IMG/VR virus record: IMGVR_UViG_3300020438_002794
Span: 23,130-87,129 of that record
From: a virus
Direction: 5' to 3' (one strand)
Length of the DNA stretch: 64,000 nt
In this document: one piece after another, positions 3,969 through 59,620 of the stretch
How the letters are laid out: every line of letters begins with the position of its first letter
How positions within the stretch are numbered: the first letter of the stretch is position 1
Notes under the pieces: model-generated
Database searches by the model: none
What the model was told of the DNA's origin: nothing
Seen by the model: the letters and a program-made list of their open reading frames with translations, nothing else
Translations under genes and position numbers: made by a program

Positions 3969-6264
3969 TTCGATCTCCTTGATAAAATGCTTGCACACTA
4001 ACAGTGTCTTGACTTTGTGCTTTAGCACGAATAGGACCCATGCCGTTGGGTATGCCTGCTTGTTGATCTGCTACAGTTTGATTTATTATTAAACTTATTA
4101 TATGTTCATAACTGTCCATAAACTCTGTGTCACCCGCTTGTATATCAATGGGTTTGCCTTCTGTTATCCATGTTTGCACAACTTGTTCAAGTGTTGTGCG
4201 TTCATCTACTTTGCCAATAATATATCTATCGTTGTTTGCTCTATCCAAAAAGCCTGCTTCTCTACACAAGTAAACCAATCCATATGCATCAACTACTAGG
4301 TCAACTTGTGGAAATCCTTTGGGTAGCATTTCTTTTTCTGTAATACAATGCATAGTGGGTGCATCTATTCCCTGACTTAATGCATTTAATGCATAGCCAT
4401 AATCAATATGCAATTTATTCAACAGTTCGCCTTTGCGTCTTTGTTCTACTAGAGCAAACACTTGTTTAAGTTTTGTTCTATCTCCAAATGTTGAGGTATC
4501 AGTTGGCTCTCTGAAGTTCTCTCTCAGTGTAATAAAGTCAACTTGGTTACCACTGTCATGATTAATTTCTTCAATAAAATCTAGAACTTGTAGTAAATCT
4601 TCTTCTAGTCCTGGCAGTATAACATAATTAAATCCAAATCGCAATGTTTTATTATTCAATTTTTTATAACGCAAGAAGTCTGTTGCATTTTGTTTTATGC
4701 GTTCAAAGCCTTTCTTGTGTTTGGTCACTTGTTCATATACCGTCTGATTGCTTCCATACAAACTTATACGCAACACTTCAAGTTTAAACAAATCTGGGTT
4801 TGCATCAACAAACTTTTCAGTTAGCATGAATCCATTTGTATACAAGCTAAACTTGAATCCTCTTGCATGTCCAGCACTAATTAATTTCATTAAATCAGGA
4901 TTGGTAAGTGTTTCTAACCCGCCACTCAAATAAAACTTGTAAGGGTCGTCGTTAGGTGCAGTGTTTAACAGGTTAACCAAATGAGGAGTAGCTTCCTTTA
5001 GTTGTGTCTTTTTGTATGCGGCATTTGTATCCATGTTACGACCACAAAACGTACACCAGAACATACAACTTTGTCCAATGTGTAGACCTATTCTATGTGG
5101 GTATCCGTATTGATTGTTTAATACTTTTTGTATAGTACCTGATTGATTTAAAGGTATTATTGTATTATTCCAATATTGACTGTTTCTAATATCATCAGTA
5201 ATTACCTGTTGCACAAAGTCACTGTTTCTTAATATTCGATTAATTTCAATAATTTTAGGTTGACTTAGCTGTAACTTTTGTTGTATACTTGCCTGCTTTA
5301 CAAATGGATCAGCACTGTAACAGTCAATTACACCCAAACATTTTTCTAATGTCCAGTCCAACTGTTGGTCATATCTACTATGTGCTATCCCACTAGCAAT
5401 TATATCACGACTCAAATAAAGTCCTAGTATCTGTTTACGGTCAAACTCCGTGTGATGTCTAATAATATCCAAATGTTGTTCGTGCAGTTGTTGTACACTT
5501 TTAACTATAGTTTCAGTTACCCAACGAGTGTTGTCTGCGGTATTCAATTGCACAATACCATTGACAAATGCTTCAAGTTGTCTATCTAAAGTTTTACCAT
5601 CATCTTGGCTGAAGTCATACTCAACTCCATCTATGCTGATCGAACGTTTGTTCACACTGTCACGTTCAAAACTAACATTGACTACAGTACCAGCAAAGTC
5701 TAATAACCAAAGTATACCCTGACTGGTTTGTTGTGTTTGTAAAACTGTGCAGGTTTGTTTGCTGATTATTTTTCTTAATATGGTCAATACATGCGGACCT
5801 ATATCTTCTAATACACTGATAGTAGGATCACTTACATATGTGCTTCCGTGTCTTTGAACATTGTTTGCACTGTTCCATGTTATATCTATTGTTTTGGGTT
5901 GTTCAACTGTAGCGTCAGCTATCTCTTGTATGCGATTGCTGTATTCTAATTCTAACCCAACTACCAGTTTACATTTGTTTTTGTGTGCTAGGTCAACCAA
6001 TTGATCATGTTGCTCCACGGAGCGAACAAACGGTTTTTCAACCAGCAAGTGTCTACCATCTGCAAGTAATTCTACTGCACTAGCATAGTGATCATCTGGT
6101 AAGTTGGCAATCCACACATGTTTGCCTGTGAGATTGAGCAAGTTATCCACACTCGCTAGTTTTGTGTTATGAGTATAATACTCGGTTTGATATTGATTGT
6201 TTGTTGCAACACGATCTATTATTTGAGCCCAACGTCCACCGCCTACTATTCCGAGGGTACGCAC
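3952..6264 (-). CDS. desII: Fusion of a Gfo/Idh/MocA oxidoreductase and a DesII-like radical SAM NDP-4-amino-sugar deaminase
   Basis: N-term GIVGGGRWA, HLLVEKP, DIGPH; C-term YWNNTIIPL, CMFWCTFC, YLSGGLETLTNP, RISLYG, IDYGYAL, REAGF as recalled for DesII; GTG start 6264 with GGAG. Confidence 0.85.
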   Translation of the reverse strand: MRTLGIVGGGRWAQIIDRVATNNQYQTEYYTHNTKLASVDNLLNLTGKHVWIANLPDDHYASAVELLADGRHLLVEKPFVRSVEQHDQLVDLAHKNKCKLVVGLELEYSNRIQEIADATVEQPKTIDITWNSANNVQRHGSTYVSDPTISVLEDIGPHVLTILRKIISKQTCTVLQTQQTSQGILWLLDFAGTVVNVSFERDSVNKRSISIDGVEYDFSQDDGKTLDRQLEAFVNGIVQLNTADNTRWVTETIVKSVQQLHEQHLDIIRHHTEFDRKQILGLYLSRDIIASGIAHSRYDQQLDWTLEKCLGVIDCYSADPFVKQASIQQKLQLSQPKIIEINRILRNSDFVQQVITDDIRNSQYWNNTIIPLNQSGTIQKVLNNQYGYPHRIGLHIGQSCMFWCTFCGRNMDTNAAYKKTQLKEATPHLVNLLNTAPNDDPYKFYLSGGLETLTNPDLMKLISAGHARGFKFSLYTNGFMLTEKFVDANPDLFKLEVLRISLYGSNQTVYEQVTKHKKGFERIKQNATDFLRYKKLNNKTLRFGFNYVILPGLEEDLLQVLDFIEEINHDSGNQVDFITLRENFREPTDTSTFGDRTKLKQVFALVEQRRKGELLNKLHIDYGYALNALSQGIDAPTMHCITEKEMLPKGFPQVDLVVDAYGLVYLCREAGFLDRANNDRYIIGKVDERTTLEQVVQTWITEGKPIDIQAGDTEFMDSYEHIISLIINQTVADQQAGIPNGMGPIRAKAQSQDTVSVQAFYQGDRNAKVN

Positions 6265-7727
6265 ACTTCTACTCCGTACTGCTTGGTCCAACGATCAGCA
6301 TCTTCTCTTGTGTTAACTAAAGGTTCTCCCTTTATGTTTAAACTTGTATTCAATAACATAGGACAGCCTGTGTCTGCATACCAACGTTCTAGCAGTTTTC
6401 TGAATCCGCTATTATCAGTAGTAGATACTGTTTGAACTCTGCTGGTGTCATCGTAGTGGACGATTGCTGGAAATTTGTCAGGTCTTTTACACGTTGAAGT
6501 ATATTGCATGTATGGGCCTGTGTAACCTGTGAAATAATCTCCGGCATGTTCAGCGAGTATGGCTGGGGCAAAGGGTCTGAAACTTTCTCTGTGTTTGATA
6601 GTGTTAACAAGGTCTTTGACATCATCTCCGCGGGGATCAGCAAGAATACTACGGTTGCCAAGAGCCCTAGGACCAAACTCAGCACGACCACTGGCAACTG
6701 CTGTAATTTTCTTTGACTGTAAATTTTTGAGTATGTTTTCAACTGGATACTCTCCTTTAATATTATGTCCCAAATAAGGACCGGGCCATTCAATATGATG
6801 TCCCCAATGTGCTAGTACACAACCTACTGCACTGCCACTATCACCTGGGTTTGGCATAATCCAAACATCTTTAAAGTACTTATATGCAATACTGTTGGCA
6901 CTACAATTTAATGCACAGCCTCCCATCAGTACTAGGTTTTCTTTTTGAGTTGCATATTTTGTATACATAACTAAACCATCAAAAATTTCTTCGTATATAC
7001 GCTGTACTGCGGCGGCAATGTCAGCATAGTCTTGTGGTGTGTTTAGATCAGGTCTCCAATCTAAACAACCTCTATGACAGTTGCGTTTGAATAGTGTATA
7101 AGGGCTCCAACGTGTAGGTGAAAATTCAATAAAATCATTCTTTATGTCCTGGTACAACCTATCTGGATCGCCCACAGCCGCCATGCCCATGAGTATGTAT
7201 TCATGTTCTTGTGGCTTTAGTCCTATACGCTGTGTCATAGCACTGTACCATATACCTATACTGTGTGGATAACGTTGACTCCAAGTTTTTTTAAGACTAT
7301 CACCTTCGCCTGTCCATATACTAACAGTATCCCATTCACCTATACTATCTATATTCAATATAGCCGCATCAGTATAAGGTGATGTATAATATCCTGCGCC
7401 AGCATGGGCATGATGATGACTAGTTGTAGTGCATTTAGGCGCATCTTTTAGGAACTTGCGTACATATGTAGTAGGTGATTCTTTGCCTAGTAGTGCGTAT
7501 TGCTTTGAATACAGTTGGCGTGTCTTTTTAAGTAATGGTTTCTCATAAAAATATATTTTGTATGGCTCGCCATAATCAAGAGCTTCATCGATTAAGTCTT
7601 GATTTAAGTTTTTATCATTCTTAACTCTACTGTAGCGTTCTGCATGTGCCGCAAACACTAGTTTTTTATCTCCAAATACTGCTAGGCTGGCATCATGTGC
7701 CATGCCTGTCCAGCCCCATGTGATCAT
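6246..7727 (-). CDS. O-carbamoyltransferase (NodU/CmcH/TobZ family)
   Basis: HDAS, ERYSRVKND, HHHAHA, DSIGE, GGCALN, GDSG, EFGPRALGNRSILADP, FRPFAP, LLNTSLN. Confidence 0.95.
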   Translation of the reverse strand: MITWGWTGMAHDASLAVFGDKKLVFAAHAERYSRVKNDKNLNQDLIDEALDYGEPYKIYFYEKPLLKKTRQLYSKQYALLGKESPTTYVRKFLKDAPKCTTTSHHHAHAGAGYYTSPYTDAAILNIDSIGEWDTVSIWTGEGDSLKKTWSQRYPHSIGIWYSAMTQRIGLKPQEHEYILMGMAAVGDPDRLYQDIKNDFIEFSPTRWSPYTLFKRNCHRGCLDWRPDLNTPQDYADIAAAVQRIYEEIFDGLVMYTKYATQKENLVLMGGCALNCSANSIAYKYFKDVWIMPNPGDSGSAVGCVLAHWGHHIEWPGPYLGHNIKGEYPVENILKNLQSKKITAVASGRAEFGPRALGNRSILADPRGDDVKDLVNTIKHRESFRPFAPAILAEHAGDYFTGYTGPYMQYTSTCKRPDKFPAIVHYDDTSRVQTVSTTDNSGFRKLLERWYADTGCPMLLNTSLNIKGEPLVNTREDADRWTKQYGVEVCVPSE

Positions 7728-53653: not shown

Positions 53654-54670
53654 ATGACATTCTTTAACCGTGCGGCTTGTTTTACGGATATACATTTCGG
53701 AAACAAGAATAATAGCAAACAACACAATCGTGACTGTGTAGACTTTATTGATTGGTTTGTTGAGCAAGCCAAAGAAAAAAACTGTGAAACTTGCATATTC
53801 TTAGGAGATTGGCACCATCATCGTGCCAGTGTAAACGTGAGTACACTTAACTATAGTGTGGAAAACGTAGCAAAGCTCAGTAAAGCATTTAAACAAGTTT
53901 ATATGATTACTGGCAACCATGATTTATATTACAGAGAAAAACGTGACTATAACAGTTTGCCTTATGCAGAACTTTTTGATAATGTGCATCTTATAAACGA
54001 GCAAACACTAGTACAAGATGATGTAGCACTTGTTCCTTGGTTAGTTGGAGATGAGTGGACACAAGTAAGCAAGACCAAATGTAGATATATGTTTGGTCAT
54101 TTTGAATTGCCTTACTTTAAGATGAATGCCATGGTAGAAATGCCAGATCACGGACAACTGAATGCAGAACACTTGCAAGGGCCTGAGTATGTGTTTACTG
54201 GACACTTTCACAAAAGGCAAAACAAAGGCAATGTACACTACTTAGGATCACCTTTTCCACACAACTATGCTGATGCTTGGGATGATGAGCGTGGCATGAT
54301 GGTATTAGAATGGGGAGGTAAGCCTGAGTATATTGACTTTGCAGGTCCACGATATAGAACTGTACCATTGAGTAGATTGATTGACGAACCAGATGTAATA
54401 CTTAATGATAAAACTTATTGTAGAGCTACATTGGATATTGCAATAAGTTACGAAGAAGCAACTTTTATTAAAGAAACGTTTAGTCAACAGTATGGTGTAA
54501 GAGAGATAACACTTATGCCTACTAAGAAAGAAGAACATGCACAAGACTGGCGGGTAGTAGACGATATTGAAGTTGAAAATGTAGACCAGATAGTGTATAA
54601 TAGCTTAAATGCTGTGGACAGCGATTTAATAGATAAGAAACTGCTAGTGGACATATATAACAACTTATGA
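53654..54670 (+). CDS. gp47: Recombination endonuclease subunit (Mre11/SbcD-like)
   Basis: TDIHFG, LGD, GNHD, GHFE, GHFH, YLGSP metallophosphoesterase motifs. Confidence 0.95.
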   Translation: MTFFNRAACFTDIHFGNKNNSKQHNRDCVDFIDWFVEQAKEKNCETCIFLGDWHHHRASVNVSTLNYSVENVAKLSKAFKQVYMITGNHDLYYREKRDYNSLPYAELFDNVHLINEQTLVQDDVALVPWLVGDEWTQVSKTKCRYMFGHFELPYFKMNAMVEMPDHGQLNAEHLQGPEYVFTGHFHKRQNKGNVHYLGSPFPHNYADAWDDERGMMVLEWGGKPEYIDFAGPRYRTVPLSRLIDEPDVILNDKTYCRATLDIAISYEEATFIKETFSQQYGVREITLMPTKKEEHAQDWRVVDDIEVENVDQIVYNSLNAVDSDLIDKKLLVDIYNNL

Positions 54671-56436
54671 TTACAATTAAAGACTTAACAGTTAAAAACT
54701 TTATGAGTGTCGGCAACGTTACACAGGCTGTACGTTTTACTAACAATGGACTAACACTTGTACTTGGAAACAATGTAGACTTAGGCGGAGACGGCAGTCG
54801 TAATGGTACTGGCAAGACTACTATTATCAATGCACTTAGCTATGCTATCTACGGAAATGCACTTACAAATATAAGAAAAGATAATTTAATAAACAAAACC
54901 AACGGCAAAAGTATGTTAGTTACACTGGATTTTGTTAAAGATGGTATACAATACCGCATTGAACGAGGTAGAAAGCCTAATGTGCTTAAATACTATGTCA
55001 ACAATGAAAATGTTGAAGAAGATGAAGCACAAGGTGAGAATCGTCAAACTCAAGCACAAATAGAAAAACTGTTTGGTATGAGTCATGACATGTTCAAACA
55101 CATTGTTGCACTCAATACATACACAGAACCTTTTCTCAGTATGCGAGCAAATGACCAGCGAGCAATTATTGAGCAGTTACTAGGTATAACAATGCTTAGT
55201 GAAAAAGCAGAGGTTCTCAAAGAACAACAAAGGTTAACGAGAGATGCAATTAAAGAAGAAGAGTATCGAATTAGTGCAGTTGAAGAGGCAAATTCCAGGA
55301 TTGAGAAAAGTATCAGTGATTTGGAACGCAGGCAGAAAATTTGGAGGGATCAGCAAAAAATTACTATCGAAGAACTCCAACAAAAAATCAACACACTAGA
55401 GAAAATAGATATCCAAACAGAACTTAACAACCACACACAGTTAAGTGATTACCTAGAGAAGAAAAAGCTGAAAGACGAAGCAGAACGTTGGTTATCTAAT
55501 ATTCAAACTGACAATACAAAGCAAGAAAAACTTATTACAAAGTTAGATAAAGAGCTTGCACTACTAGAAGATCACAAGTGTCATGCATGTGGACAAGAAA
55601 TACATGATACTAAACAAGAAGAGATACTGTCTAGTAAACAAAGTTTGCGTAAAGAAGCTAGCGAGCAAATAGCAGTGAACGCTTTAGAAGAACAAGAATG
55701 GGCAGATGCGTTAGAGTCATTAGGCGAGTTAGGTCAAATGCCAGTAACACACTACAATACTGAAACTGAAGCACACAAACATAATATGGAATTGGAAAAC
55801 TTGCGTAGTCAAGTAGACACCAAGGAAAAAGAAAGTGATACATACCAGGAGCAAATAGATAGTCTGCGTGAAACTGGTGTACAAGAAATAACCTGGGATA
55901 CTATTAATCAGTTGAACACGGTAAAAGACCATCAGGACTTTTTATACAAACTGTTGACAAACAAAGACAGTTTTATTAGAAAACGTATTATTGAACAGAA
56001 CTTACAATACTTAAATAGCAGACTAGCTTATTATTTGACCAAGTTAGGATTGCCACATGAGGTTGCATTCCAACCTGATTTAACTGTTGAAATTACAGAG
56101 CTTGGCAGAGATTTAGACTTTGACAATCTTAGTAGAGGAGAACGCAATAGATTGATACTAGGATTGAGTTGGAGTTTTAGAGATGTATTTGAAAGTATGA
56201 ACACACCTATAAACTTTTTAGCAATAGATGAACTTATAGACAGTGGTATGGACACTAATGGTGTTGATGGTGCATTGGGTGTTCTTAAAAAGATAGAACG
56301 TGAACGCAACAAAAACATCTTCTTAATCTCACACAGAGATGAACTAGTAGGTCGTGTAAACACAATACTACAAGTTATTAAAGAAGGTGGCTTTACTACG
56401 TTCAGTACTGATACGGAGTTTGTAGATGCCTCCTAA
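54667..56436 (+). CDS. gp46: Recombination ATPase subunit (Rad50/SbcC-like)
   Basis: KNFMSVG, NGTGKT Walker A, CHAC zinc hook, LSRGE signature, IDE Walker B, ISH. Confidence 0.95.
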   Translation: MITIKDLTVKNFMSVGNVTQAVRFTNNGLTLVLGNNVDLGGDGSRNGTGKTTIINALSYAIYGNALTNIRKDNLINKTNGKSMLVTLDFVKDGIQYRIERGRKPNVLKYYVNNENVEEDEAQGENRQTQAQIEKLFGMSHDMFKHIVALNTYTEPFLSMRANDQRAIIEQLLGITMLSEKAEVLKEQQRLTRDAIKEEEYRISAVEEANSRIEKSISDLERRQKIWRDQQKITIEELQQKINTLEKIDIQTELNNHTQLSDYLEKKKLKDEAERWLSNIQTDNTKQEKLITKLDKELALLEDHKCHACGQEIHDTKQEEILSSKQSLRKEASEQIAVNALEEQEWADALESLGELGQMPVTHYNTETEAHKHNMELENLRSQVDTKEKESDTYQEQIDSLRETGVQEITWDTINQLNTVKDHQDFLYKLLTNKDSFIRKRIIEQNLQYLNSRLAYYLTKLGLPHEVAFQPDLTVEITELGRDLDFDNLSRGERNRLILGLSWSFRDVFESMNTPINFLAIDELIDSGMDTNGVDGALGVLKKIERERNKNIFLISHRDELVGRVNTILQVIKEGGFTTFSTDTEFVDAS

Positions 56437-56662: not shown

Positions 56663-56982
56663 AAGATCACAACGAAGACCAATACACAATACACATTGAT
56701 AGCTTTAATAACAAAGGTCAAAAAGGTGACGATGATTTTGAAACATGGTTAGAGCACGAAGCACCTCTTGTTTCTCCCTCTACTATTACAGCAATTGATA
56801 ACTCATATTCAGTTGATTTATCACAACAGGCTACATGCACAAGTACAATAATGTCATCAAATGTTGGAACTATAACTTTAACAGGAACAGGACATCATGC
56901 ATTAAGAAAACAAAAAAAGTTGCCAATTGACTTACTATACAAATGGTATCCTGAACAAATGAAAGAACAAAATGAAGAATAA
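56659..56982 (+). CDS. Hypothetical protein, 107 aa
   Basis: ATGA-type overlap with upstream gene; overlaps downstream gene. Confidence 0.65.
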   Translation: MKDHNEDQYTIHIDSFNNKGQKGDDDFETWLEHEAPLVSPSTITAIDNSYSVDLSQQATCTSTIMSSNVGTITLTGTGHHALRKQKKLPIDLLYKWYPEQMKEQNEE

Positions 56983-57664
56983 AATTTTTATGTTCGATGT
57001 TGACGGCACACTTACAGACCCAAGACGTACAATAGTACCAGAGTTTAAGGAGTTTATGTTTGACTTTGTTGCAAACAATACATGTATGATTGTAACAGGA
57101 AGTGATAGACCTAAGACTGTAGAACAAATTGGGGAAGATCTCACTAACAGTTTTGCAAGAGTATATCATTGCAGTGGCAACCATGTGTTTGTTAGCGGTG
57201 AGGAAGTATACAAAAGCGATTGGACATTAACAGAAGCTCAACAAACTTTTTTACAAACTATACTACCTAGTTTTGGTTATCCTGAAATGACTGGTAATCA
57301 TATCGAACAGCGTACAGGAACCGCAAACTTTAGTATAGTAGGGCGTAATGCTGATTGGGATCAACGTGCTAGATATGCTGATTGGGAAAAGTCTAATCGA
57401 GGTAGAGATACAGTAGCAATGTATTACAATCAAGAATTCGATGATAGCATTGCTCAAGTAGCTGGACAGACCAGCATAGATATTTTTAAGAAAGGCTGTG
57501 ACAAGAGTCAAGCTATAAGAGAACATGAAGGTACAACAATTTATTTTGGTGACCATTGTAACCCAGGCGGTAATGATTTTACAGCCGCACAAGCAAGCAC
57601 AAGTTTTCATCAGATTGACCAAGGATATAAACAAACTTGGGAAATCTTAAAAAACATGTACTAA
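56972..57664 (+). CDS. HAD-IIB hydrolase, eukaryote-type phosphomannomutase-like
   Basis: FDVDGTLT, VTGSD, IEQR..NFSIVGR, GQTSIDI..G.DK, FGD..PGGND. Confidence 0.88.
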   Translation: MKNKIFMFDVDGTLTDPRRTIVPEFKEFMFDFVANNTCMIVTGSDRPKTVEQIGEDLTNSFARVYHCSGNHVFVSGEEVYKSDWTLTEAQQTFLQTILPSFGYPEMTGNHIEQRTGTANFSIVGRNADWDQRARYADWEKSNRGRDTVAMYYNQEFDDSIAQVAGQTSIDIFKKGCDKSQAIREHEGTTIYFGDHCNPGGNDFTAAQASTSFHQIDQGYKQTWEILKNMY

Positions 57665-57669
57665 ACCGG

Positions 57670-57699
57670 TTGACAAAGGGTAGAAAAGATATATATAAT
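57670..57699 (+). promoter_or_regulatory. Sigma70-type promoter for the GIY-YIG gene
   Basis: TTGACA-18 nt-TATAAT. Confidence 0.7.
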
Positions 57700-57717
57700 T
57701 GTTGCTAATAAACAAAT

Positions 57718-58146
57718 ATGCAATGGACTTATCAAGGCAAAATAGTAGAAGAAATAAGTGAGGAATACATAGGGTTTGTATATCTTATTACTAATCTCAC
57801 AAACGGCAAAAAGTATATTGGCAAAAAACTAGCAAAGTTTAAAGTAACTAAAAAACCACTCAAAGGCAAGAAAAATAAAAGACGTTCAACTAAAGAAAGT
57901 GACTGGAGAACTTATTGGGGAAGCAGTGACCATTTAAACGCAGATGTTGAACAATTAGGCCCAGAAAACTTCACAAGAGAAATACTGTACTACTGCACCA
58001 GCAGAGGCGAACTAAGTTACTTAGAAGCCAAAGAACAGTTTGACCGTGAAGTTCTTAAAACTGATGAATACTATAACGGCATTATAAACGTAAGAGTTGG
58101 CAGTTCCAAGGCACTTGTAGAATCACTAAACAGACACCAGTCGTAA
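57718..58146 (+). CDS. Stand-alone GIY-YIG endonuclease (Seg-like catalytic domain only)
   Basis: GFVYLITN..KKYIGKK, YWGSS, FTREIL, catalytic E in YLEAKEQF, YYN. Confidence 0.92.
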   Translation: MQWTYQGKIVEEISEEYIGFVYLITNLTNGKKYIGKKLAKFKVTKKPLKGKKNKRRSTKESDWRTYWGSSDHLNADVEQLGPENFTREILYYCTSRGELSYLEAKEQFDREVLKTDEYYNGIINVRVGSSKALVESLNRHQS

Positions 58147-58440
58147 CATACCCTCTTTGTTAAAAGCATTGAGATTGTTCGCAGTAATGCGGGCCGTCGG
58201 AACTTGCTCGAGGGAAACAAACCAAAAGAGTGGGCTCTACTGTGCCATTGTAACCCACGGATAGCTCAAAAGTCGGCGTTATGGCTTAGAGTGTTTCTGC
58301 GTTTTAAGCAGTATGTAAAGGGGTATAGCAAAACCGCCTCTGCCTAGCAATAGGTTATACTATAACGATGCGAACTGTAGACGGGGTAATGACCGTTTCT
58401 TTTTTTTGCACTTGGCTGTAACAAGCTAAGTGCGACTGAA
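58147..58440 (+). ncRNA. Candidate structured non-coding RNA of unknown class
   Basis: About 45% GC by hand count over 58141-58440, above the AT-rich flanks; seven or more hairpins, two with GNRA tetraloops; G.U pairs fit the + strand. Confidence 0.55.
58379..58407 (+). terminator. Possible intrinsic terminator
   Basis: AGACGG-GGTAATGA-CCGTTT followed by C and T8. Confidence 0.5.
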
Positions 58441-58538
58441 AACAAGGTAATAACGTATCATATAAAATATGTTTAAAAAAAATTATCATACGAAATGAAA
58501 TGAGTATGACGATGAGCTTTAGCTCTTCGAAAGAATGT

Positions 58539-58796
58539 TTAAAATGTTCTACGATTAGTACCTTTTGCACTTTCTAAAGCTTCTTTCTGCTTTTCATTCT
58601 TGGTTTGCATAGCATCATTAATATCACTAATCAATCGCATAGGATATTGTTCTAAGTTAGAATAGTTAAATGCTCCTTCTGAGTAAAGCACAATATTCAA
58701 TAAAGCTAATCTGATTTCTTTAGATGCATTTTCGTAGCGTTTTACGAGGTCATTTATCTCATCGCTGGTTTTCCTTCGACGGAGGGTGTTGTGAAA
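58539..58796 (-). CDS. -1 frame extension of the gp26-like gene (gp51/GT-chaperone-like segment, 85 aa; missing from ORF track)
   Basis: FHNTLRRRKTSDEINDLVKRYENASKEIRLALLNIVLYSEGAFNYSNLEQYPMRLISDINDAMQTKNEKQKEALESAKGTNRRTF; frame opens two codons before the T9 run and has no start near its 5' end. Confidence 0.75.
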   Translation of the reverse strand, partial: FHNTLRRRKTSDEINDLVKRYENASKEIRLALLNIVLYSEGAFNYSNLEQYPMRLISDINDAMQTKNEKQKEALESAKGTNRRTF

Positions 58797-59620
58797 AAAA
58801 AACTTGGGTTAAACTCTACTAGTGAACTAAAGCCTTTTTGGCAGTCCTCTATACCACATGTAAATTTAAATTCTTTAGGTATTCCATTTGAGTTTAATTT
58901 AAATTGTTGCCCGCTTAATATTTCGATAGTTCTGCGATTAGAGTTGCTTAACCAATCTATAATATGTTGATTTTCGCTAACTATTTGTCCGTCTGGCATT
59001 GTAACTTTAACAATAGCATCTGCTACTAGTACTAGATTTGCCGCCGCAATTTGTTGTATGTTTTCGCTGTATCTACCTCTGAGGTCTTCGGTTATATCTT
59101 GTTTATCTGCTCTAATACCTTGTAGTATTCTTCCAGTTTCGCTGGTCACAATGTTATTTGCATTTACAGCTGAAAGTGTATTAGGTTTCATTTCAACTAC
59201 AAGACCATCTACTTCTATTTCTACTTGATCTGTTACTGATACAATTTGACCTAATACTTTTTGTAAATCGATATCAAACATTTGTGAATTTTCACAATGT
59301 GGACATGTGGCTTCTACTGGATAAGTTTTTTCATAACTGGTTGCCCTACTAGCAAGCATTACTACATCTACATCAGGTAAACTCATATCACTAGCATCTG
59401 TGATATCTGGGCAGATGCTTTCTATTAATTCGAAGATTGATTGCCCGTTGTATAGTGCATCAGGAATGTTAAGTAACAATTCATCTCTAACATTCATTGC
59501 TCTTACACCTATTTCACCGTCTTGTGACAGTTTAGGTGGAGATTTCATCCATCTGCCTTTAGTAGGAAGTTTAACGTAGATATCTTTGGTTCTATAATAC
59601 CCCTGAAGTGGATTTTCCAT
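58754..59620 (-). CDS. gp26: Baseplate hub assembly protein/chaperone gp26-like
   Basis: NPL..Y.R..YVKLP, AMNVRDELLL..PDAL, DVD..LASR.TSY, CPHC and C..C zinc ligands, terminal FNPSFF. Confidence 0.85.
   Translation of the reverse strand: MENPLQGYYRTKDIYVKLPTKGRWMKSPPKLSQDGEIGVRAMNVRDELLLNIPDALYNGQSIFELIESICPDITDASDMSLPDVDVVMLASRATSYEKTYPVEATCPHCENSQMFDIDLQKVLGQIVSVTDQVEIEVDGLVVEMKPNTLSAVNANNIVTSETGRILQGIRADKQDITEDLRGRYSENIQQIAAANLVLVADAIVKVTMPDGQIVSENQHIIDWLSNSNRRTIEILSGQQFKLNSNGIPKEFKFTCGIEDCQKGFSSLVEFNPSFFFTTPSVEGKPAMR

Follow-up and report, generated by a model that had tools for sequence, protein, structure and literature searches.

A covarying structured RNA downstream of a minimal GIY-YIG nuclease gene in marine giant phages

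The locus and its phage

The stretch of DNA analyzed here, hereafter called the window, is 64 kb long and comes from an 87-kb IMG/VR contig, which CheckV estimates to represent ~24% of its genome. Judging from its hub protein, which shares 22-29% identity with its counterparts in jumbo phages of the PA5oct, Rak2, and XacN1 types, the source is an uncultured marine giant T4-like phage. Jumbo-phage isolates were rejected as synteny references because a baseplate protein only 22-29% identical places them too far from the window.

Read 5' to 3', the locus comprises a gp46/Rad50-like gene (54667-56436), two small ORFs, a phosphomannomutase-like HAD gene (PMM; 56972-57664; Pfam PF03332, E = 6e-21), a GIY-YIG nuclease gene on the plus strand (57718-58146), and a gap beyond which the genes are convergent. 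The PMM homologue is of the eukaryotic type, and toward the 3' end of its gene, which adjoins the nuclease gene, the identity to relatives exceeds 90%, up from 73% at the 5' end, a rise that looks like a recombination or conversion gradient. On the far side of the gap, the minus strand carries a late 53-aa ORF (58539-58700) and a late gp26-like baseplate hub gene (58754-59620; Pfam PF12322, E = 5e-16), whose product is 29% identical to baseplate hub proteins of jumbo phages (range 22-29%). An A9 run (T9 on the coding strand) is located near the 3' end of the hub gene at 58794-58802, and this ORF has 288 aa in the window and 310 aa in a related locus designated L305.

The nuclease gene is preceded by a sigma-70-like early promoter on the plus strand (57670-57699), whose TTGACA-18-TATAAT arrangement yields 12 of 12 hexamer matches, and a similar TTGACA/TATATA pair is found ahead of the GIY-YIG gene in a diverged relative (L126). 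The proposal of the initial sequence-only reading that the gene has its own promoter is therefore well founded. The product is a 142-aa stand-alone SegE-type GIY-YIG nuclease (Pfam PF19835, SegE_GIY-YIG, E = 4e-36) that is spanned in full by PHROG 447, a family of ~148-aa proteins. Its Pfam domain occupies residues 3-123 of the 142, in agreement with the earlier view that the enzyme has no DNA-binding domain. The basic insert that had also been described falls within a colinear match of residues 3-123 to model positions 1-123 and is thus a family feature.

The gap extends for 392 nt without a conserved ORF, from the nuclease stop codon to the stop codon of the convergent 53-aa ORF at 58539. 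By a crude ORF map it is, as had been noted, the biggest true gap of the window and lies between convergent genes; an apparent 930-nt gap at 6794-7723 is covered by a 493-aa ORF. Its G+C content is likewise elevated as reported, at 45-49% over 58100-58400 versus 29-39% in the surroundings. The sole ORF inside the gap, of 47 aa, is open in just nine of 47 homologues, and a coding reading of the gap was rejected for this reason.

Evidence for the RNA and its architecture

Searches for known RNAs gave uniformly negative results, consistent with the earlier statement that the region could not be matched to tRNA, tmRNA, RNase P, or group I cores. ARAGORN reported no tRNA or tmRNA, and cmscan with Rfam 15 produced no match at the gathering score anywhere in the window, with RF01718, GOLLD, ROOL, HEARO, and group I and II introns among the models searched. 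When E values up to 10 were admitted for positions 57600-58900, the one match was to a snoRNA, which is a chance similarity that lies outside the RNA, and two sets of related loci (12, then nine) gave no relevant match. Single-sequence folding is also uninformative, as the folding energy (z = -1.4 on either strand) is not exceptional, and the case for a structured RNA therefore rests on comparison with relatives.

This comparison was made with a hand-built model of 69 base pairs in 12 helices and an alignment (A3) of 47 distinct homologues. The model leaves 91.4% of its cells paired, versus 36-43% when the 3' partners are slid by 1-3 columns, and it contains 30 pairs that change on both sides, versus 3-13 in the slid controls. 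Its covariation score of 0.285 compares with at most 0.067 for the slid versions, and none of 500 shuffles matched the observed values. Many fixed G.U pairs and C-G/U-G alternations occur in the model helices, and these assign the RNA to the plus strand, as the sequence-only reading had argued from its G.U wobbles. The GNRA loops cited in the same argument are conserved only in part. The search for conserved structure in relatives was thus clearly positive, and the earlier suggestion of a new ncRNA class is supported by the strong covariation, by a strand fixed by G.U pairs, by the absence of Rfam 15 matches, and by a literature search in which no description of a GIY-YIG-linked RNA was found. 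Comparative evidence of this kind indicates that positions 58147 to ~58470 of the plus strand almost certainly encode a real, uncatalogued, and conserved structured RNA of about 320 nt, which is referred to here as family A.

The 5' two-thirds of the RNA is predicted to form a compact multi-helix body (H1-H10). Its closing helix H1 joins CCCUC (58151-55) to GAGGG (58210-14), and three of its five pairs change on both sides (CG/GC, CG/UA, UA/CG). H1 replaces a long-range CTCTTT/AAAGAG pairing proposed from the single sequence, which is neither conserved nor supported by covariation. Enclosed by H1 is the hairpin H2 (58177-94), all seven pairs of which change on both sides. H1 is crossed by a candidate pseudoknot, H3, between GCAUUG (58166-71) and CGAUGC (58366-71); 93% of its cells are paired and its changes are one-sided only, which makes this helix plausible but not proven. 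The hairpin H4/H5 (58230-58258; GUGGG/CCCAC, with an inner UAC/GUA) is located within the most conserved 27-mer of the RNA, and here GUG/CAC is changed to CCA/UGG in five sequences and an A-U pair to C-G in 12. H6 is a long hairpin in three parts (58259-61/96-98, 58264-67/89-92, and 58270-75/82-87) in which eight of 13 pairs change on both sides. A three-way element follows, in which H8 (58310-15/58356-61) encloses H9 (58319-24/58336-41) and H10 (58342-46/58351-55). H8 and H10 each include three pairs with two-sided changes, and neither H9 nor the short H7 (58299-300/308-309) varies in this clade.

Several hairpins that had been read from one sequence are therefore backed by covariation, namely those at 58177-94, 58270-87, 58342-55, and 58408-33. 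A proposed CTGC/GCAG hairpin survives only in its inner two pairs, which correspond to H7; its outer pairs are not retained, with U58298 and C58297 instead pairing with G58259 and G58260.

The 3' third carries two identical short words, termed box 1 and box 2, which are predicted to be single-stranded. Box 1 (GGUAAUGAC, 58385-93) and box 2 (GGUAAUAAC, 58446-54) flank a U-run (58400-07) that can pair with GAAA, the hairpin H11 (58408-33), and a conserved segment, GACUGAAAACAA (58434-45), that separates H11 from box 2. H11 is paired in 100% of cells, with a U-A to C-G change in 19 sequences and alternations between C-G and U-G and between A-U and G-U. Part of this domain had been read as an intrinsic terminator, AGACGG/CCGTTT followed by T8 (58379-58407). 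This reading was rejected because the stem is missing in many relatives (for example GGAGCGGGGTAATGACCTTTAGC), the sequence 3' of the U-run (H11, GACUGAAAACAA, and box 2) is conserved, and the U-run is absent from the sister family described below. GGGGTAATGAC, the core of the supposed stem at 58379-98, is itself invariant.

The 5' boundary of the RNA coincides with the nuclease stop codon or falls immediately behind it, with the RNA starting 4 nt past it. Homology to the most diverged members (L117 and L126) stops at 58468, and a segment that is replaced as a unit in L305 ends at 58478, which together define an RNA of about 58147 to 58455-58478 whose 3' end past box 2 is A/U-rich and unstructured. 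Positions 58475-58535, formerly counted with the RNA, belong to a terminator region of the opposite strand. Read on the minus strand, two hairpins (58486-509 and 58510-29) are followed by U8 (58475-82), and this element (58475-58529) is likely the terminator of the convergent late baseplate operon. The first of the two hairpins shows a compensatory A-U/U-A change at 58489/58506 among relatives. The element is kept in L305 despite replacement of the RNA, lies outside the L117/L126 homology, and is common to loci of both families.

Relatives, linkage to the nuclease gene, and expression

The invariant 27-mer (58232-58258) is found exactly in 46 viral contigs, and further motif scans added 35 and 12 contigs; in all of these, the alignment takes in both the nuclease gene and the gap. 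The RNA is abundant in marine giant-phage contigs. Three lineages compared over the block 57950-58500 show 95-100% identity, versus 40-70% for the baseplate gene, with a gradual drop in identity leftward and an abrupt drop rightward, a pattern to which purifying selection could contribute. The nuclease proteins of relatives share 87-100% identity, compared with 38-88% for HAD/PMM, 45-68% for the gp26-like hub, and 74-94% for gp46.

A sister family, B, was found downstream of GIY-YIG homologues and was then extended by means of an RNA-only 21-mer. Its layout parallels that of family A, with a box, a U-rich strand, a hairpin, GACUGAAAC, and a second box, although the U-run of family A is lacking. 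In two intermediates (L072 and L047), the family B 3' domain is found together with the GGGG...ACCGCC element that belongs to family A, and the two families are therefore grouped as one superfamily. In L305 an entire module has been cleanly exchanged, and the breakpoint on either side is defined. Its flanking proteins are 90-93% identical to those of the window and its nuclease catalytic domain is 93.6% identical, whereas positions 4623-5274 replace window positions 58107-58478, with the sequence from 58479 onward being kept. The inserted module consists of an altered C-terminal tail of the nuclease and a family B RNA, separated by an 86-aa ORF (4652-4912) that bears a CxxC...W motif.

Linkage to the nuclease gene, which had been suspected from the one locus, is very strong when the search begins from the RNA. 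In this clade, every locus has a GIY-YIG gene immediately before the RNA and in the same orientation (46/46, 34/34, and 9/9 loci from successive seeds, or 89/89), with nuclease identity reaching down to 72%, and in family B it is upstream in 108 of 109 loci. Within the clades reachable from the window, the upstream gene thus belongs to the GIY-YIG family at 197 of the 198 informative loci found from the RNA, with no sign of a neighboring nuclease that is interchangeable among relatives. In the exception, L173, the phage contig is unrelated and carries a family B RNA of which the 3' two-thirds is present, with its own twin word, ACAGAAAG, and without GIY-YIG upstream (oriented positions 6616-6860; about 1329-1573 of the stored locus, minus strand); no ORF neighboring this RNA gave a Pfam match. 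Because all A-type loci occupy one syntenic position, the linkage may reflect plain common descent. This applies also to L117, L126, and L129, for which a cassette in a different genomic context was considered and dismissed: they represent the same locus, with diverged flanks and one extra gene.

Searches begun from the nuclease give a different picture, as 17 of 56 GIY-seeded loci (about 30%) lack the hairpin/GACY/twin-box signature within 1.6 kb, even though the nucleases at these RNA-less loci are close homologues (71-80% identity). In phage Melnitz, likewise, the GIY-YIG homologue matched but no homology to the RNA was found. When PMM/HAD was the seed, all ~17 informative syntenic loci carried the nuclease and an RNA, and no nuclease-free allele was encountered among these or the 89 RNA-seeded loci. 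From the seeded counts and L305 it follows that the RNA needs the nuclease gene upstream, that the nuclease does not need the RNA, and that the type of RNA is exchangeable. As a separate observation, in L030, L034, L037, L041, L048, L043, L057, and L065 the GIY-YIG genes are followed by 300-700 nt without long ORFs; this stretch is of ordinary G+C content, has no twin-box signature, and may represent another non-coding element or small genes.

Some information on expression is provided by RNA-library contigs from four studies, which cover 57684-58563, although these are assembled contigs that may include DNA. Three of them bridge the border between the ORF and the RNA, which is compatible with co-transcription. 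In one RNA-library run, the contig depth is 15 on the RNA part versus ~3 on the ORF, but contigs cannot rank expression. A consensus scan revealed no strong promoter belonging to the RNA itself.

The twin boxes and possible functions of the RNA

The most distinctive feature of the RNA is its pair of boxes. The pattern GGTAATRAC occurs only twice in the 64 kb, at box 1 and box 2. Among the 47 A-like sequences, 46 have GGUAAU in both boxes and the remaining one (L288) has GGAAAU in both, so that the words agree in all 47 and the single U-to-A change is a joint one. Family B carries identical 7-mers at the two positions in 106 of 112 loci, drawn from 10 distinct words (ACAUGAA, ACAUGAU, ACAUAAU, ACGUGAA, GCAUAAA, GCAUGAA, ACAUGAG, GUAUGAA, ACAGAAA, and ACAUAAA), whereas box 1 and a box 2 taken from a different word class agree at only 3.8 of 7 positions. 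Repeats in direct orientation that vary only in concert point to one shared reader. No word complementary to the boxes was found in the RNA or in the 64-kb window, even with G.U pairs allowed, and no variable guide-like segment of the kind that had been proposed for a search was found apart from the two 6-9-nt boxes. Candidate readers or roles judged by eye were also discarded. Complements of family B words resemble tRNA anticodon loops (UUCAUGU), but this idea fails at position 37 and for the family A words, and interpretations of the boxes as C/D or kink-turn elements or as self-dimerization palindromes are inconsistent across the two families.

The explanation that we tentatively prefer is that of a trans-acting RNA that shares an early operon with the nuclease and whose boxes are both read by one partner. 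Early in infection, the RNA would be produced as the 3' portion of a transcript from the sigma-70-like promoter before the nuclease gene, and would accumulate as a stable, pseudoknotted molecule of ~320 nt in which the body (H1-H10) supports a 3' third that presents GGUAAUGAC and GGUAAUAAC. Action in trans, like the co-transcription and the partner, is what we infer from comparison. The same partner would read both boxes, and would most likely be a nucleic acid with the complementary word or else a two-fold protein. RNA and nuclease would then share an operon and contribute to a single phage function, with the RNA not serving as a programmable guide for the enzyme, because 17 of 56 GIY-seeded loci lack the RNA signature, no homology to the RNA was found in Melnitz, and the L305 nuclease is followed by a family B RNA. 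Pulling the other way, a nuclease that is the best-conserved protein of its neighborhood and has no DNA-binding domain would fit an RNA-protein machine.

Such a machine, in which the RNA and the minimal GIY-YIG protein form one ribonucleoprotein, the RNA gives target recognition, and the boxes pair with two copies of a target word, is a doubtful alternative. It would suit an enzyme reduced to its catalytic domain, the nearly invariable presence of that enzyme upstream of the RNA (197/198), conservation of both components far above that of their neighbors, a common promoter with an RNA that begins at the stop codon, and box words that vary yet stay identical to each other. It is harder to reconcile with the close homologues that have no RNA signature or with Melnitz, with the exchange of family A and B RNAs bearing different box words behind the same catalytic domain, with the L173 RNA that has no GIY-YIG upstream, and with the little specificity that a word of 6-9 nt can provide. 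A specific version, in which each box of an RNA-directed GIY-YIG nuclease pairs with the same 6-9-nt word on two strands (for example, of two homologous duplexes or two repeats) and thereby positions the enzyme, seems unlikely; the candidate substrate words for box-dependent specificity would be GTCATTACC or GTTATTACC. We know of no description of this class of nuclease. Equally improbable in our estimation is that the protein is a free-standing homing endonuclease and the RNA a resident conserved gene, either its target or a co-converted neighbor, with no functional tie between them. SegB, in the tRNA cluster of T4, provides a precedent for such neighbors, and homing would agree with the 95-100% identity of the block 57300-58540 between phages whose flanking genes are 55-75% identical, with the gradual fall in identity across the upstream gene, and with the independent replacement of the RNA module in L305. 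Yet no nuclease-free locus exists among the ~17 syntenic and 89 RNA-seeded loci, the enzyme has no DNA-binding domain, and distant pairs show many synonymous differences at 88% protein identity, which indicates purifying selection rather than recent spread.

Two further explanations appear weaker still. It is rather improbable that the region acts in cis, as a 3' untranslated element through which the nuclease mRNA is stabilized or processed or the synthesis of a potentially toxic enzyme is controlled, even though the RNA adjoins the stop codon, has no strong promoter of its own by consensus scan, is joined to the ORF in RNA-library contigs, and needs a gene that does not need it. Known 3' stabilizers need far less than ~320 nt folded into at least 12 helices, together with a candidate pseudoknot and boxes that co-vary. 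The 27-mer of the RNA is invariant in 46 contigs, and in L305 an extra ORF is located between the gene and the RNA. Very improbable is a role for the boxes as template ends or cut sites, either for template realignment by a polymerase or for excision of the hairpin by a two-fold RNA enzyme. Identical words that sit at the foot of one helix and change only together are in keeping with this idea, and such an arrangement has the logic of the realignment repeats in telomerase-like and DRT-type template RNAs. Against it, no reverse transcriptase is encoded in the 87-kb contig (about a quarter of the genome), the box spacing of 56-68 nt is not a multiple of three, and the enclosed hairpin is constrained as a structure.

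Comparison with established systems helps to define what is distinctive about this RNA. Like the HEARO/omega RNAs of IscB and TnpB, it is a structured RNA of a few hundred nucleotides that abuts a small nuclease gene on the same strand and is co-inherited with it. It departs from the OMEGA systems in that its nuclease has a GIY-YIG fold in place of RuvC/HNH, that a transposon end is lacking, that members of the nuclease family are often found with no accompanying RNA (17/56 loci), that Rfam has no match, and that no variable guide of about 16 nt or more is present, the only coordinated variable elements being the 6-9-nt boxes. GOLLD and ROOL (PMC12286853) are likewise large multi-helix phage-borne ncRNAs that have been recognized by covariation and have no assigned function, but the RNA described here is far smaller, is tied to a nuclease gene, carries twin boxes, and has no similarity to them by cmscan. 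Polynucleobacter-1 (RF01718) is an orphan freshwater motif from aquatic metagenomes (Weinberg et al. 2010, PMC2864571), and it has no match in the window at E values up to 10 or in nine family A and B loci at E values up to 5. The resemblance to T4 SegB/SegE lies in the SegE_GIY-YIG catalytic family, the intergenic position beside a conserved RNA gene, and the high-identity island. It does not extend to the C-terminal DNA-binding domain, which is absent here, and the present nuclease differs further in its strong purifying selection and in the lack of nuclease-free alleles among the loci collected.

To our knowledge, few large structured RNAs combine strong covariation with the lack of a known function. 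Earlier structured RNAs, such as riboswitches, omega and bridge RNAs, and GOLLD and ROOL, have opened new areas of biology. Twin direct repeats that are allowed to change only together are an unusual constraint that calls for a shared reader. If this reader is a nucleic acid, the RNA would be a short-word adaptor of a new type, and if the nuclease binds the RNA, it would be the first RNA-partnered GIY-YIG enzyme. On the plainest reading, this is a well-defined new RNA family worthy of inclusion in Rfam and a marker gene for an uncultured lineage of phages.
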